This document shows, piece by piece, positions 56,419-62,502 of a stretch of DNA of 64,000 nt; position 1 is the first letter of the stretch; every line of letters starts with the position of its first letter. This stretch comes from Felixounavirus LF110P1. Where the stretch lies: sequence record OZ035744.1; one strand, 5' to 3'. The position numbers and the translations under genes are program-made. The notes beneath the pieces are model-generated. The model did not search any database and was not told where the DNA came from. It saw nothing but the letters and a program-made list of their open reading frames with translations.

Positions 56419-57834
56419 ATGAGCGAGTTATTTAAACATGCGCACCTTCATGCAGGTCGAACTGAAAATGGTGCTGTAAACCATACTTCATCAATGTCTG
56501 CTTTAGTAGATTTTTATAAAGCTGCTGGTTCAAGTCGTAGCAATGTAGAAATCTTACCAGACCTTTTCTATAAAGCTTTGCATGAGGATGTTGATGTTGC
56601 AGTTCGTATTTTACTGCATATGCGAGATGTACGAGAAGGTATGGGTGAGCGTAAAGCTTTCCGAACTGTTTTACTTCAAGCGATTGAAGATAAAGTTTTA
56701 GAGCCTACGCAGGTTCTTCGCATTATGGATAAGATTGCAGAACTTGGTCGTTTTGATGACTTCAAAATCTTCGTAGGTACTCGTTTCGAGACAGATGCCT
56801 TCAAACATTTAGAAGCAGCATTACTAGACCCTGCAACAGCAGGTTTGGCGGCTAAGTGGTTACCACGAGTCAAACCACGTCATAAGAAGTTTGTAAAACG
56901 TTTCTGCAAGTTTGCCAACTTGAGTGAGAAAGAGTACCGCACACTGTTGTCTGCACTATCTGATACAGTTGAGCAAAAAATCTCTGCTAATGAGTTTGGT
57001 AAGATTGACTACAGTAAGATTCCTTCACTTGCTGCTGCACGTTACCAAAAACTGTTTAACCGCAAAGATGGAGAACGCTACAAAGCTTACATCGAGTCCT
57101 TATCAAAGGGTGAGACTAAGATTAATGCTGGTGCTGTTTACCCATACGATGTAATTAAATCTGTTAAGCATGGTAATGCAGATGTTGCTAATGAGCAGTG
57201 GAAAGCACTACCAAACTGGATGGCAGAGGGTGAAAACATCTTGTGTATGTCTGATGTTTCAAGCTCAATGTCTTGGGTGAATTTTGGTTCAATTACTGCT
57301 CTTGATATTGGTGTTTCACTTGCATTGTATGTAGCAGAACGTAATACAGGTTGCTTTAAGAATGAGTTGATGGTTTATTCAACAAACCCTCACTTCATCG
57401 AACTGAGTGGTGATTTACGAAACCGTCATCGTCAGGTGATGCGACACGTTGAATATGGCTCAACTAACTTACAAGCAGCTTTTGACCGTATTCTTGAAAC
57501 AGGTAAAAGAAACAACTTGACTCAGAAAGATATGCCAAGTAAGCTTATCATCTTCTCCGATATGGAGTTCAATCAGGTTGATGGAGCTAACGGTCGTACA
57601 AACTTTGAAGCAATTCGTAGTAAGTACAAAAAAGCTGGATACGAAATGCCTCAACTGGTATTCTGGTACTTAGCAAACCGTAATGGTACTTGCGAAGTGT
57701 CTGTTAAGGATAACGGTGTAGCAATGGTATCTGGTTTTTCTCCAGCTACTTTAAAAGCTCTGCTTGGTGGTGAGAAGTTTGACCCAATCAGCGTAATGCT
57801 CAAAGCAGTAATGATTGACCGTTATATCTGGTAA
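56419..57834 (+). CDS. vWA-domain protein with Ro60-like architecture (helical N-terminal domain plus C-terminal von Willebrand A domain)
   Basis: MIDAS motif DVSSS (DxSxS) in ILCMSDVSSSMSW, with later GSTNLQAAF and IIFSDMEF; about 270 aa helical N-terminal region. Confidence 0.55.
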   Translation: MSELFKHAHLHAGRTENGAVNHTSSMSALVDFYKAAGSSRSNVEILPDLFYKALHEDVDVAVRILLHMRDVREGMGERKAFRTVLLQAIEDKVLEPTQVLRIMDKIAELGRFDDFKIFVGTRFETDAFKHLEAALLDPATAGLAAKWLPRVKPRHKKFVKRFCKFANLSEKEYRTLLSALSDTVEQKISANEFGKIDYSKIPSLAAARYQKLFNRKDGERYKAYIESLSKGETKINAGAVYPYDVIKSVKHGNADVANEQWKALPNWMAEGENILCMSDVSSSMSWVNFGSITALDIGVSLALYVAERNTGCFKNELMVYSTNPHFIELSGDLRNRHRQVMRHVEYGSTNLQAAFDRILETGKRNNLTQKDMPSKLIIFSDMEFNQVDGANGRTNFEAIRSKYKKAGYEMPQLVFWYLANRNGTCEVSVKDNGVAMVSGFSPATLKALLGGEKFDPISVMLKAVMIDRYIW

Positions 57835-57852: not shown

Positions 57853-57881
57853 TTGACAATGTGTTTGATACCCTTTAATAT
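57853..57881 (+). promoter_or_regulatory. sigma70-like promoter ahead of tRNA cluster
   Basis: TTGACA - 17 nt - TAATAT. Confidence 0.5.
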
Positions 57882-57999
57882 GTTCTACATAGAAACGAAA
57901 TGAGAGCTTTTCTAAGATACTGAAAAATATTTTAAAAAAGTTCTTGACAACCACTAAAAAATAATGTTAAAGTGGTTACATAGAGTTTGAAAAGTTTAT

Positions 58000-58076
58000 C
58001 TCTGTTTAGCTCAGCTTGGTAGAGCGTTCCGTTTGGGGCGGTAAGGCCGGAGGTTCAAGTCCTCCAACAGAGACCA
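58000..58076 (+). tRNA. tRNA-Pro (anticodon TGG), CCA encoded
   Basis: cloverleaf by hand: acceptor CTCTGTT/AACAGAG, T-arm GGAGG-TTCAAGT-CCTCC, anticodon loop TTTGGGG. Confidence 0.6.
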
Positions 58077-58158: not shown

Positions 58159-58165
58159 CCAGTTT

Positions 58166-58240
58166 TGACAGAAGACCAATTACAGCAAACTTAATCTACT
58201 CATCTGACACGAAATCGGACAAAGAAGATATTTGGTCTGG
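58166..58240 (+). repeat. inter-tRNA repeat copy 1 (CAGAAGACC-N3-TACAGCAA ... GGTCTGG)
   Basis: family of at least four copies between tRNAs (58166, 58335, 58725, 58811); possible fifth at about 61115. Confidence 0.5.
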
Positions 58241-58251
58241 TCATTGAGAAT

Positions 58252-58325
58252 TGCGGGTATAGAGAAAGGGCGTCTCACATGTCTCATTAGCATGGTATCG
58301 GCAGGTTCGACTCCTGCACCCGCCT
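58252..58325 (+). tRNA. tRNA-Met (anticodon CAT), initiator-like 1:72 mismatch
   Basis: T-arm GCAGG-TTCGACT-CCTGC, anticodon loop CTCATTA, D-stem GAGA/TCTC. Confidence 0.6.
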
Positions 58326-58334
58326 CCAATTTTG

Positions 58335-58392
58335 CAGAAGACCGTATTCAGCAACAAAATACTTTTTGCGGATAAAAGAAAAAACACGGTCT
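58335..58392 (+). repeat. inter-tRNA repeat copy 2
   Basis: GCAGAAGACCGTATTCAGCAA...CGGTCTGG. Confidence 0.5.
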
Positions 58393-58405
58393 GGCAATGT
58401 ATTAA

Positions 58406-58479
58406 GGTTAGGAAGCACATAAGGTATGTGCGGTCGCCTGTTAAGCGAATGGCACAGGGTTCGAATCCCTGACTAACCG
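58406..58479 (+). tRNA. tRNA-Asn (anticodon GTT)
   Basis: T-loop GGGTTCGAATCCC, anticodon loop CTGTTAA, acceptor GGTTAGG/ACTAACC. Confidence 0.6.
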
Positions 58480-58491
58480 CCAAATTTAAAT

Positions 58492-58576
58492 GTGTCGTTA
58501 TCCCGTAGATGGTAGCGGTGGGGACTGTAAATCCCTTGTCATTGAGACTCGGTAGGTTCGACTCCTACACGACACA
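58492..58576 (+). tRNA. tRNA-Tyr (anticodon GTA), long variable arm
   Basis: 85 nt; anticodon loop CTGTAAA; T-arm GTAGG-TTCGACT-CCTAC; acceptor GTGTCGT/ACGACAC. Confidence 0.6.
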
Positions 58577-58584
58577 CCAATAAA

Positions 58585-58659
58585 GGTTATGTAGTTTAAT
58601 TTGGTTAAAATACTCCCCTGTCACGGGAGATGATGAGGGTTCAAATCCCTTCGTAACCG
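58585..58659 (+). tRNA. tRNA-Asp (anticodon GTC)
   Basis: anticodon stem CTCCC/GGGAG, loop CTGTCAC; T-loop GGGTTCAAATCCC. Confidence 0.6.
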
Positions 58660-58724
58660 CCAATTTTGAGAGGGCTATTTAGCCCCTCCCTTAAAGAGTT
58701 CTTACGAGTATTCTTTAAAGGAGC

Positions 58725-58797
58725 AGAAGACCAAATACAGCAAGAATGTATGAAATTTCAAGCCAATTTAATTTTGAAAATTTAAAACTTGGTCTGG
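58725..58797 (+). repeat. inter-tRNA repeat copy 3
   Basis: CAGAAGACCAAATACAGCAA...TTGGTCTGG. Confidence 0.5.
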
Positions 58798-58810
58798 CTC
58801 AACAAATTTA

Positions 58811-58942
58811 CAGAAGACCGTTTACAGCAAAACTTAAACAATCTATTTCTCCGGTAAAGAAAAGGCGAAGGTTCGATTCCTTCACTCGGCAGATGTCGAG
58901 TTGGTGTAATGGTAGCACTTAAGATGATAAACAACGGTCTGG
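58811..58942 (+). repeat. inter-tRNA repeat copy 4 (extended, contains tRNA-like T-arm and D-arm fragments)
   Basis: CAGAAGACCGTTTACAGCAA ... GCGAAGGTTCGATTCCTTC ... GTTGGTGTAATGGTAGCAC ... CGGTCTGG. Confidence 0.45.
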
Positions 58943-58943
58943 T

Positions 58944-59086
58944 AATTATCTTTGTAGATAAGTTATTAAGCTTACCTGTGAGTATGCGACCACAAAGGGT
59001 GAAAGGGTAAATTCTAGATTTAAACCCAACAAGGCACATCGCTACAGACCTTAAGCAAGTCTGGGTAGCTTATCTACAAAGATAAT
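58944..59086 (+). ncRNA. candidate structured RNA: 17-bp perfect inverted repeat enclosing about 110 nt
   Basis: TTATCTTTGTAGATAAG (58944) pairs with CTTATCTACAAAGATAA (59069); no ORF; sits between tRNAs. Confidence 0.3.
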
Positions 59087-59091
59087 TTAAT

Positions 59092-59251: not shown

Positions 59252-59323
59252 GTGGGTTAGCATAAATGGTAATGCAAACGGCTGATAACCGTTAGAAGAG
59301 GGTTCGATACCCTCACCTACAAC
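59252..59323 (+). tRNA. tRNA-Ile (anticodon GAT)
   Basis: anticodon stem AACGG/CCGTT, loop CTGATAA; T-arm GAGGG-TTCGATA-CCCTC. Confidence 0.6.
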
Positions 59324-59341
59324 CAATTTCAATAAAGTTGT

Positions 59342-59370
59342 TGACATTGAGATGTGACTACTTTATAGTA
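59342..59370 (+). promoter_or_regulatory. sigma70-like promoter inside tRNA cluster
   Basis: TTGACA - 17 nt - TATAGT. Confidence 0.5.
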
Positions 59371-59661
59371 GATAAAATAATTCATAATATGTATAATTCA
59401 AACACCAATACATGAGCGTTAGACGTAACACAATGTGGGGAAATTTGTTGTACATATTCTGAATAGTTTTCGTTGCGTAGCGTCTATTTTGCAAATTTAA
59501 AATAAATGCAAACGACAATGTTTTTCTGGCAGTAGCTTGATAGGCTAAACACCAGTGAGGTCTTCCAATCCCTCATCAAAGAATTTGGCGTACTAGCCCA
59601 CGGTATGATTAATAAAGTGGGCATCTTTAAGGGCTTTCTAAGAGAGTCTTTAAAGATTAAT

Positions 59662-59735: not shown

Positions 59736-59880
59736 CCAATTAGTTAGCAGATTACTTAGACGACCTTAGCGGGTCTTCCTGTAGGGAGGTGGTCTGTATC
59801 TCATGTTTTCCAGAACATGTAAATAATCTGAGAAGGGGCTTTACAGTGTTGAGATAATACGGTAAGCTTCGAATTATAGT

Positions 59881-59960
59881 ATGGGACGATGTTAAGACTC
59901 TAAGGCATGAGCAACGGCTTCCAACACCGTTTCAAAGGGGTTCAACTCCTCCGTCCCATG
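59881..59960 (+). tRNA. tRNA, isotype uncertain (possibly Trp, anticodon CCA), atypical extended D region
   Basis: perfect acceptor ATGGGAC/GTCCCAT, T-loop GGGTTCAACTCC, CCA encoded; D-arm does not fold canonically by hand. Confidence 0.4.
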
Positions 59961-59976
59961 CCAAAGATTGTTTCGG

Positions 59977-60060: not shown

Positions 60061-60087
60061 CCAAAATGATTTTTTAAGGTGATGATT

Positions 60088-60429
60088 ATGAAGAAAGGTT
60101 CAGTAGGTGAAATTGCTACACAATTAGCTTTCCTCAAAAGAGGTTATGAAGTGTATTCACCAGCTACAGATAATGCAAAGTATGACTTTCTAGTTCACAA
60201 AGATGGTTTGATTGAGACTGTTGAGGTAAAATCAACCTCAGTCAAAAGAGGTGAACTTTGGAGAGTGCAACTGAAAAGAGTTCGTTCTAACAAGAATGAA
60301 AATAGAATAATGAATTTTGATAACTCTCAAGTTGATTACTTAGCTGTTTACATTGAACCACTTGATAAAGTCATCATCTACAAAGCTAAAGATATCAAGT
60401 CTAAGACTGAACTTAGCTTAAAGATTTAA
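60088..60429 (+). CDS. small protein embedded in tRNA cluster (possible PD-(D/E)xK-type nuclease)
   Basis: about 113 aa; D...E-x-K-like arrangement (DFLVHKDGLIETVEVK); RBS AAGGTGA. Confidence 0.3.
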   Translation: MKKGSVGEIATQLAFLKRGYEVYSPATDNAKYDFLVHKDGLIETVEVKSTSVKRGELWRVQLKRVRSNKNENRIMNFDNSQVDYLAVYIEPLDKVIIYKAKDIKSKTELSLKI

Positions 60430-60671
60430 TACTCCGTCCATGCTTGTTCGCATTGTCGGTTTATCCCTCGTGTTGTCGTACACACTGATAAAGCACCTAG
60501 TAGGTGTCACGGAGAAGAGATAGTATCAAGCTCTCCAAAGGTTCTAGTCACCGGATTAAACAAGACTATGCAAAGGCCTTCTTAGGTCTTTTTAGAGGGC
60601 TTCTAAGGTTATTACAGCTTGTTGTGGAACCTTGTTGCTTAGGTTCTTAGAAGTTCTCTAAAAAGATTTAA

Positions 60672-60746
60672 TGGGAGATTGACGGTAATTGGTAAACCTA
60701 CCATCCTTAGAAGTTGGTGTTTGAGGGTTCGAATCCCTTGTCTCCT
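60672..60746 (+). tRNA. tRNA, probably Leu (anticodon TAG), short variable arm
   Basis: acceptor GGGAGAT/GTCTCCT (with G-U), D-loop AATTGGTA, loop CTTAGAA, T-loop GGGTTCGAATCCC. Confidence 0.45.
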
Positions 60747-61080: not shown

Positions 61081-61172
61081 ATTCAGAGGTCAAGTGAAAG
61101 ACCGCTGGTGTCAACTGAAGACCGTAACAAATTCCACGGAGTTGAGTTAGCGGCACAACTTCAGACCTCTTT
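61081..61172 (+). other. intergenic inverted-repeat element (AGAGGTC ... GACCTCT) containing a GAAGACC motif
   Basis: CAGAGGTCAAGTGAAAGACCGCTGGTGTCAACTGAAGACCG...CAACTTCAGACCTCT; no ORF. Confidence 0.3.
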
Positions 61173-61174
61173 CA

Positions 61175-61246
61175 CACTCGCTTAGTTTATATGGTAAAAC
61201 ATCACCCTTACAAGATGAAGAAAAAGGTTCAAGTCCTTTAGTGAGT
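61175..61246 (+). tRNA. tRNA-Val (anticodon TAC)
   Basis: loop CTTACAA; T-arm AAAGG-TTCAAGT-CCTTT; acceptor ACTCGCT/AGTGAGT. Confidence 0.5.
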
Positions 61247-61428: not shown

Positions 61429-61671
61429 ATGCAAACATTAACAGTAGTTGAACATGAAAACTGTGAGAGTATTGAGTTTGTCAGGGTCATTGGTGTTGAA
61501 CACCACATTTTCTTAAAAGTGGGATACTTATGTGACCCCGCTAGAGTAGAAAGATTTATACGTGATTGTTTTGGTGGTAGACATCTGAAGAGTGTTATTT
61601 TTGAGACAGTTTTACCAGAAGGTTTAGAAACGAATAATAACATTTACCTCCTTACGAGGATTAGACAATGA
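61429..61671 (+). CDS. hypothetical protein (within tRNA cluster)
   Basis: 80 aa ORF with AAAGGTGA RBS. Confidence 0.4.
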   Translation: MQTLTVVEHENCESIEFVRVIGVEHHIFLKVGYLCDPARVERFIRDCFGGRHLKSVIFETVLPEGLETNNNIYLLTRIRQ

Positions 61672-62225
61672 GATACTTAAAGTATGCTTCATGGATTTTC
61701 CTAGCTTTGCTAGAACCATTAGCAGCAACCTTAGCAGTTATCTTAGCACCTTTCGTAGTTCCATTTTACAGTGAGAAGAAAGGCCACTTACCTTTCGGAT
61801 TTAGATGGATGGAGACATATGACAACCCAATTGATGGTGACGAAGGTCATATCGAACGATGGGCTAAGATTAGAAAGATTGGTAAGCTGGGTGTCTACAT
61901 GCAGAGAGTCGGATGGCTCTGGAGAAACAAAGCTTATAACTTCTCTTACCATGTATTAGGAAGAGATGTAAAAGATGTTACTAAGTGGAAAGGTAATATC
62001 AACGTAAGTTCTGACCCTGAAGATAATCAGACAGGTTATCTCCTAATGTGGAACAGTAATGCTTGGGGATTATTCGCTTTTATCCCATCAATTAAAGTCT
62101 TTGGTAAACAGTTTTACTGGAGAATTTATATTGGATGGAAACTAAAAAGTGTTGTCCCAGAAGAAAGAGCATTCTCAAGGGAAAGAGTTATGTTGGCATT
62201 CTTTATTCATCCACTGAGAAAGTAA
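61668..62225 (+). CDS. hypothetical membrane-associated protein (within tRNA cluster)
   Basis: 185 aa; N-terminal hydrophobic helix (WIFLALLEPLAATLAVILAPFVVPF). Confidence 0.45.
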   Translation: MRYLKYASWIFLALLEPLAATLAVILAPFVVPFYSEKKGHLPFGFRWMETYDNPIDGDEGHIERWAKIRKIGKLGVYMQRVGWLWRNKAYNFSYHVLGRDVKDVTKWKGNINVSSDPEDNQTGYLLMWNSNAWGLFAFIPSIKVFGKQFYWRIYIGWKLKSVVPEERAFSRERVMLAFFIHPLRK

Positions 62226-62467: not shown

Positions 62468-62502
62468 GCCACTTCTAAGGGTTCTTACGAGAGTCCTTAA
62501 AT

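Follow-up and report, generated by a model that had tools for sequence, protein, structure and literature searches.

What are the short sequences that recur between the tRNA genes of Felixounavirus LF110P1? The window analyzed here, a 64,000-nucleotide stretch of sequence record OZ035744.1, belongs to a Felix O1-like phage, with 340 related records and 95-98% identity to many Felixounavirus genomes. ARAGORN identified 26 tRNA genes on its + strand, between positions 58000 and 63585. A sequence-only reading of the window had pointed out a repeat family in this cluster, with copies that end in GGTCTGG, and had named four possible identities for them: promoter-like boxes, signals for processing, small RNAs or what is left of a small mobile element. 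We found that the family comprises four units and that they are probably genes for Y-like small RNAs acting with a Ro60-like protein encoded next to them. The link to this protein, the tRNA-like domain enclosed in one unit and the wider RNA family described below had not been part of the earlier reading.

Four repeat units share a stem and a single-stranded motif

The 20-nt 5′ motif CAGAAGACCNNNTWCAGCAA has four matches in the window, all on the + strand (58169, 58335, 58724 and 58811), and the count is still exactly four when two mismatches are permitted. Shuffled sequences are expected to contain 0.05 copies by chance. GGTCTGG closes every copy (58234, 58388, 58791 and 58936). The repeat family reported from the sequence alone is therefore real. 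Two of the positions given for it (58335 and 58811) are exact, and the other two, given as 58166 and 58725, miss the true starts by 3 and 1 nt. The copies had also been placed in separate inter-tRNA spacers; all four do lie in such spacers, but units 3 and 4 stand in tandem within a single one, from tRNA-Asp (58662) to tRNA-Lys (59092).

The two bases 3′ of ACC covary with the two bases before GGT, reading AA/TT or GT/AC between copies. As these positions pair and yet vary by copy, they carry the signature of a base-paired stem. The handle common to all four units opens with AAG and a 6-bp stem that brings the two ends together. Beside the 5′ strand of this stem is the motif NUWCAGCAA, which is single-stranded; after a variable middle come the return strand and UG. 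Unit 1 (58169-58240, ~72 nt, + strand) is located between tRNA-Glu and tRNA-Met, with its stem at 58174-58179/58232-58237, the motif UUACAGCAA at 58180-58188 and UG at 58238-58239. Unit 2 (58335-58394, 60 nt, + strand), between tRNA-Met and tRNA-Asn, pairs 58340-58345 with 58386-58391 and has AUUCAGCAA at 58346-58354 and UG at 58392-58393. Both are found 7-8 nt 3′ of the preceding tRNA and 11 nt 5′ of the next. Unit 3 (58724-58797, 74 nt, + strand), in the long spacer that it shares with unit 4, has its stem at 58729-58734/58789-58794, AUACAGCAA at 58735-58743 and UG at 58795-58796. In unit 4 (58811-58942, 132 nt, + strand) the stem is GACCGU/ACGGUC (58816-58821/58934-58939), followed on its 5′ side by UUACAGCAA at 58822-58830.

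Unit 4 encloses a permuted tRNA-like domain

In its minimum free energy fold, unit 4 contains a multi-branched, permuted tRNA-like domain (58833-58923). Its two ends form a 5-bp anticodon-stem-like helix (CUUAA/UUAAG, 58833-58837/58919-58923), within which are a variable-arm-like (V) hairpin (58846-58862), a T arm (GAAGG UUCGAUU CCUUC, 58867-58883), a closed acceptor hairpin of 7 bp with a 4-nt loop (ACUCGGC AGAU GUCGAGU, 58884-58890/58895-58901) and a D arm (GUGU AAUGGUA GCAC, 58904-58918), all on the + strand. Among 11 orthologues the T and D arms are unchanging, and the acceptor helix shows compensatory changes in three of its seven pairs, with 98.7% of cells paired. Three sequence versions of the acceptor hairpin occur across Ounavirinae, and every version pairs.

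The Rfam tRNA model RF00005 matches this domain partially, at 22-23 bits (22.9 on the part covering V, T and the acceptor 3′ strand; gathering score 29), and ARAGORN found no tRNA in 58663-59091. Unit 4 is no cloverleaf tRNA, given that its acceptor stem is closed and its anticodon loop is replaced by the handle. The tRNAs that ARAGORN predicted for the phage cover 19 amino acids, with Trp alone lacking one, and we considered unit 4 as a permuted gene for the absent tRNA-Trp. We rejected this candidate because there is no anticodon loop and because the same handle occurs on units free of tRNA sequence. Units 1-3 resemble unit 4 at their ends alone and have no tRNA parts.

A Ro60-like protein is encoded immediately upstream of the cluster

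The open reading frame (ORF) that stands immediately upstream of the tRNA cluster (56419-57834, + strand) encodes 471 amino acids, with a helical-repeat ring and a vWA-like domain, and its product is the candidate protein partner of the RNAs. It comprises Pfam DUF2828 and DUF7788 and belongs to PHROG 850, annotated as “RNA-binding protein.” We modeled its structure with AlphaFold from a 43-sequence alignment (predicted local distance difference test score 88). In a Foldseek comparison, the full-length matches of this model were exclusively Ro60/TROVE structures (9kop, 9l5y, 2i91, 2nvo and 1yvp), with E values of 3e-8 to 3e-6, probability 1.0 and template modeling scores of 0.44-0.65. They include the Ro60 of Thermus phage phiLo, Xenopus Ro and Deinococcus Rsr, and isolated vWA domains ranked far below them. 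A phmmer search of the ORF against PDB sequences gave nothing significant, and NCBIfam had no match for it.

A 2024 preprint assigned a Ro60-like fold to Bas63 gp130, the product of a gene just upstream of the tRNA cluster in another Felixounavirus, and reported that gp130 counters the Ppl defence system. Its authors guessed that some of the downstream “tRNA genes” are Y RNAs, and identified none. Based on synteny, we infer that the ORF at 56419-57834 is the orthologue of Bas63 gp130. DUF2828 / PHROG 850 is represented in 709 phage records within the collection that was searched, as well as in many bacterial assemblies. For the homologue in Aeromonas phage Aeh1 (L207 2348-3928), the annotation notes similarity to Arabidopsis T31B5.30, which extends the protein family to eukaryotes.

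Related RNAs accompany distant DUF2828 genes

A search of related genomes for the motif, which the sequence-only reading had suggested as a check, recovered the same handle beside DUF2828 genes in both viral and bacterial contigs. The viral set comprised 75 contigs whose DUF2828 protein is 39-47% identical to that of the window. A strict descriptor (G-N5, 3 nt, CAGCAA, 10-220 nt, the complementary N5-C, and TG) had 61 matches on the strand of the gene and one on the opposite strand, with zero matches on reversed sequence and 0-1 in shuffles. At least one match was found in 39 of the 75 loci, and 44 of the 61 are no more than 600 nt from the DUF2828 gene (21 downstream and 23 upstream). The stem sequences vary throughout the set (GATTAG/CTAATC, GGTTCC/GGAACC, GGATAG/CTATCC, etc.), while the flanking AA, the motif and the UG remain constant.

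We built a covariance model, R1, from 24 short RNAs of the distant viral set, with Ounavirinae excluded. When both strands of the window were searched, the four best matches were unit 2 (36.5 bits, E = 7e-7), unit 3 (33.1 bits, E = 6e-6), unit 1 (32.5 bits, E = 8e-6) and the 5′ part of unit 4 (19 bits, E = 0.025), and nothing else fell under an E value of 0.2. Among the 75 viral loci, all 66 matches with E ≤ 0.1 are on the strand of the gene. An independent set comprised 80 genome contigs from bacteria and archaea, each encoding a DUF2828 homologue (33-42% identity). All 64 matches there are on the strand of the gene as well, giving 130 out of 130 over 155 distant DUF2828 loci. Fifty-one matches in the bacterial set have E ≤ 0.01, and by hand count 40 of them lie within 600 nt of the gene. 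Their stem is 99.3% paired and all six pairs covary, and sliding the partner strand reduces pairing to 36-45%. Because the alignment of the bacterial set was fitted to R1, it is the strand bias and the position that constitute unbiased evidence.

These results bear on the earlier proposals. We rejected promoter boxes, as the stem covaries as RNA and a strong sigma-70 match never coincides with the motif; the units contain only a weak 9/12 sigma-70 site, inside unit 1. Alternatively, the units could be functionless today, either what a small mobile element has left behind or tRNA pseudogenes that have decayed or been permuted; in one variant, unit 4 is a permuted tRNA-Trp gene. This could account for the terminal inverted complementarity of the units and for the tRNA parts in permuted order that unit 4 holds in a phage without a tRNA-Trp. 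Against such an origin stand the strict orientation of the R1 matches, a stem that covaries around a motif constant across phyla, and the conserved position beside one gene family. In addition, unit 4 has the handle where an anticodon loop would be, and the other three units have no tRNA parts. We regard this explanation as highly improbable.

Of the 50 RNA-bearing viral loci that were checked, about half (~25) lack a tRNA gene within 6 kb, indicating that the RNA travels with the protein gene and not with the tRNAs. The units could otherwise have been taken for processing or spacer signals of a polycistronic tRNA precursor, such as nuclease recognition stems, considering that all four are in tRNA spacers and that units 1 and 2 come so close to the tRNAs on either side. 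However, the family recurs where tRNA genes are missing, the majority of the tRNA spacers in the window are without the motif, and a processing signal would have no need of a tRNA-like cargo or of a single-stranded motif of 9 conserved nucleotides. A processing role of this kind is very unlikely.

The variable middles of distant members are modular. Some are short and A/U-rich and others are permuted tRNA-like domains, several of which carry NCCA after the acceptor 3′ strand. Two such domains occur at L112 (7796-7918 and 10485-10607), with the acceptor 3′ strand followed by ACCA or CCCA. At L084 (5735-5834) a complete, normal-order tRNA-Thr-like sequence is found within the handle, and six loci (L049, L050, L054, L056, L057 and L067) have in common a recurrent cargo module, CCUUUCUGGAGGGGAAAGCAAAAACUCGCC. 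The arrangement recurs in cultured phages. In Listeria phage LMTA-57, three RNAs stand in tandem just ahead of the DUF2828 gene, and a gene for an RtcB-type “tRNA-splicing ligase” follows 1.3 kb downstream (L206 5308-6455). In Mycobacterium phage BobsGarage, two RNAs are directly 3′ of a gene annotated as “Ro-like RNA binding protein.”

Known RNA families did not account for these sequences. In a scan with Rfam 15 (4227 families), tRNAs alone reached threshold in the window region, and only tRNAs and one transfer-messenger RNA (tmRNA) did so in 11 related loci. Neither the YrlA nor the Y_RNA family was matched in the Rfam scan, even at E values up to 10. Our literature search did not find a paper describing these DUF2828-linked RNAs.

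Candidate Y-like RNAs of a Ro60-like protein

Strand, linkage, stem covariation and the loci without tRNAs together indicate that the units are most likely Y-like RNAs, rather than promoters, processing signals or mobile remnants. Of the proposals made from the sequence alone, it is the small RNA that fits a covarying end-to-end stem, strict strandedness and a Ro60-like gene as neighbor even where tRNAs are absent. We have high confidence that the units are functional RNAs linked to the DUF2828 gene, and good confidence, reasoning from this linkage and from the fold of the protein, in the prediction that they bind it. That they act with the adjacent protein as Y-like RNAs is, in our judgment, likely.

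Among the closest known counterparts is YrlA, a tRNA-mimicking bacterial Y RNA with the layout V-T-acceptor stem-D and a closed acceptor stem (Chen et al., 2014, PMC4201824). As at loci for YrlA and other Y RNAs bound by Ro60, or Rsr (PMC4201824; Yrl1/2 of Thermus phage phiLo, PMC12135203), several small RNAs are encoded beside a gene for a Ro60-fold protein and share its strand: the first bases of the four units are 335-977 nt downstream of the ORF at 56419-57834, and all are on the + strand. In both cases the 5′ end pairs with the 3′ end, and one RNA per genome, here unit 4 only, shows the order V, T, closed acceptor stem and D, in which the T and D arms do not vary and the acceptor covaries. 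The remaining copies, units 1-3, are shorter and lack a tRNA-like domain, as do YrlB-type partners. The differences are that the handle places NUWCAGCAA beside a plain 6-bp stem whereas YrlA has GNCGAAN0-1G/CGAA in a bulged helix, that the protein is assigned to Pfam DUF2828 and DUF7788 without the TROVE annotation of YrlA partners, and that the phage units are inside a cluster of 26 tRNA genes. The survey of Chen et al. took TROVE-annotated genomes only, so DUF2828 loci were outside it.

Several observations weigh against a Y-like role. None of the four units has in its 5′ region the YrlA motif GNCGAAN0-1G, the presumed Ro60 contact. A GGCGAAG at ~58864-58870, at the base of the unit 4 T stem, reads GGAGAAG in orthologues and so is not a conserved motif. 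The likeness of the ORF to Ro60 is by fold alone, at 12-16% identity, and Pfam calls DUF2828 and DUF7788 but not TROVE. Folding each unit, another check that had been suggested, yielded the permuted tRNA-like fold of unit 4, but units 1 and 3 by themselves have ordinary folding energies (z scores of -0.6 and -1.2). Finally, the majority of the RNAs in the bacterial loci are just upstream of the gene, a position that fits a cis-acting leader too.

This last point leads to the possibility that the units are not free RNAs but act in cis within the leader or trailer of the Ro60-like mRNA, perhaps as autoregulatory sites bound by the protein. In the bacterial set, 36 of the 51 matches precede the gene by no more than 600 nt and share its strand, and the handle could serve equally well as a protein-binding operator. 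In the window, however, the units are 335-1100 nt downstream of the ORF, past two promoter-like sites and amid tRNA genes, and the viral copies are almost evenly divided between the two sides of the gene. It is also hard to see why leaders would occur as two to four copies in tandem whose middles are unrelated and in some cases mimic tRNAs, and known Y RNAs are likewise co-transcribed with rsr. We therefore consider cis-acting elements unlikely.

Functional small RNAs with some other partner, such as host Hfq, PNPase, an RtcB ligase or a decoyed defence nuclease, would be linked to the DUF2828 gene only through a shared pathway. The handle is indeed unlike known Ro60-binding sites, and an RtcB ligase is also encoded at some loci. 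But the RNA and the DUF2828 gene are the sole pair seen to co-occur at short range in viral, bacterial and cultured-phage loci, and tight gene-RNA adjacency is a hallmark of known Ro60-Y RNA pairs. A different partner thus seems quite unlikely.

If the units are Y-like RNAs of the Ro60-like protein, they would probably be co-transcribed with the phage tRNA cluster and excised during processing of the flanking tRNAs; release by tRNA-processing nucleases is plausible. By analogy with Ro60-Y RNA particles, the invariant handle would most likely be the docking site for the protein, and the variable middle may act as a cargo or adaptor module that recruits or mimics something else. The module of unit 4 would then mimic a tRNA whose acceptor stem is closed and whose anticodon loop is replaced by the handle, a shape that would let the ribonucleoprotein (RNP) engage tRNA-recognizing enzymes or nucleases. 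The tRNA clusters, the RtcB ligases and the published anti-Ppl phenotype suggest that the role of the RNP is most likely RNA or tRNA surveillance, repair or counter-defence during infection.

Stable non-tRNA RNAs are also produced from the tRNA cluster of phage T4. These RNAs, species 1 and 2, are co-transcribed with and processed from the cluster, and their function is unknown. They are not known to have a Ro60-like partner or a CAGCAA handle, and we liken them by description to the units reported here, as small RNAs of a tRNA cluster.

Resemblance to Dictyostelium Class I RNAs

The sole Rfam family that repeatedly matched the phage RNAs, below threshold, is RF01414, the Dictyostelium Class I RNA. 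Units 1, 2 and 4 scored 17.5, 24 and 12.8 bits and unit 3 had no match to this model; the best score among viral relatives was 28.9 bits (L055). The gathering score of 41.5 was reached by none of these. Class I RNAs start with AAG, have a covarying 6-bp stem joining their ends, an 11-nt motif (CCUUACAGCAA) by the 5′ strand and a variable middle, and end in CUGU; they have been reported as unique to Dictyostelia, with an unknown mechanism (Kjellin et al., 2021, PMC7919456). D. discoideum Class I sequences read GTTGAC-CTTA-CAGCAA ... GTCAAC-TG, a feature-for-feature near match to the phage consensus.

The likeness covers the AAG start, the 6-bp covarying stem, the motif by its 5′ strand (CCUUACAGCAA compared with the phage NUWCAGCAA) and the C-UG(U) end. 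It extends to an A/U-rich variable middle, an A-rich and then C-rich run before the 3′ strand, a usual length of ~55-65 nt, and rare long members with structured inserts. Some viral members carry CCTTACAGCAA exactly, and CCUUACAGCAA is likewise exact in some. The phage spacer, by contrast, is 1 nt shorter than in D. discoideum, and the Class I RNAs are encoded by dictyostelid nuclear genes with a Dictyostelium upstream sequence element (DUSE) promoter ~60 nt upstream, whereas the units here are in an enterobacterial Felix O1-like phage. A sequence-only hidden Markov model of the phage RNAs gave weak scores against D. discoideum Class I RNAs (E values of 0.2-9), so the resemblance resides in the architecture of stem and motif. 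A text search of a small part of the D. discoideum proteome (a paper supplement) did not find DUF2828 signature peptides. It is possible, though we propose it tentatively, that the CAGCAA-handle RNAs and the Class I RNAs belong to a single RNA family, or at the least that their protein partners are homologous.

Other elements of the cluster

Two sigma-70-like promoter matches (57853-57881 and 57944-57973, + strand) are found ahead of tRNA-Pro, each agreeing with the consensus at 10 of 12 positions. Judging from this consensus match alone, the pair could drive the tRNA and RNA cluster.

Directly 3′ of unit 4 is a 148-nt element (58944-59091, + strand) with a long perfect terminal stem and internal hairpins (z score of -5.7). 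One internal hairpin, CAGAC-C UUAAGCAA-GUCUG, resembles a closed mini-handle. Its counterpart reads CAGACC-CUUUAGCAA-GGUCUG in phage tootiki and CAAACC-CUUUAGCAA-GGUUUG in SUSP2, a compensatory change. R1 does not match this element, which may nonetheless represent an additional RNA of the system, the fifth and an atypical one.

A second motif reported from the sequence alone, GTTCTTACGAG, does occur exactly twice, at 58698 and 62481, and is a separate element at hairpin tips. The two copies cap hairpins with a CUUUAAAG-type stem at 58689-58721 and 62476-62499 (+ strand). Similar strong hairpins at 59623-59657 and 60582-60671 (z scores of -4.1 and -5.3) are just 5′ of tRNA-Arg (59662) and tRNA-Leu (60673). 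These hairpins form a second repeated family of the cluster and perhaps mark processing or termination sites. The sequence GAAGACCGTAACAAA, which had been counted as related to the four units, is present at 61117 on the + strand, close to the 61115 first given. It has neither CAGCAA nor GGTCTG and is missed by R1, and so it is not a member of the family. It is contained in a long hairpin (-30.7 kcal/mol, z score of -3.0) in the tRNA-Thr/tRNA-Val spacer (61081-61175, + strand).

The cluster also encodes a small PD-(D/E)XK endonuclease (PF11645, 3e-17; 60079-60429, + strand) and a DUF7338 protein (4e-62; 61668-62225, + strand), and has three long spacers without tRNA genes (59326-59661, 59739-59976 and 60430-60672, + strand). 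Rfam gave a weak tmRNA match at 59472-59661 (16 bits, E = 0.002) and a weak permuted-tmRNA match at 59268-59540. A tmRNA was detected at two distant DUF2828 loci, L083 (88 bits, above threshold) and L068 (by ARAGORN).

Implications for Ro60-Y RNA systems

Ro60-Y RNA particles are a conserved RNA-surveillance machine whose bacterial and phage branches have been mapped only partly. In our best reading, the DUF2828-linked RNAs are a large and widespread family, for which we found no earlier description, and a variant of the Ro60-Y RNA theme. Candidate RNA partners can now be assigned to the large, uncharacterized Ro60-like family DUF2828 / PHROG 850, and the handle motif that these RNAs share is new and simple to search for. 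In the case of Bas63 gp130, this names actual candidate Y RNAs behind its countering of Ppl. If the Dictyostelium link holds, the Class I RNAs of social amoebae, which are abundant developmental regulators, would turn out to be Y-like RNAs of eukaryotes, belonging to a Ro60-like (DUF2828/TROVE-type) RNP that has phage and bacterial relatives, and would gain a directly testable mechanism. This design, in which one handle takes exchangeable cargo (tRNA mimics among them and, in one case, an entire tRNA), suggests that phages have a general adaptor system at work around tRNA metabolism and host defence.

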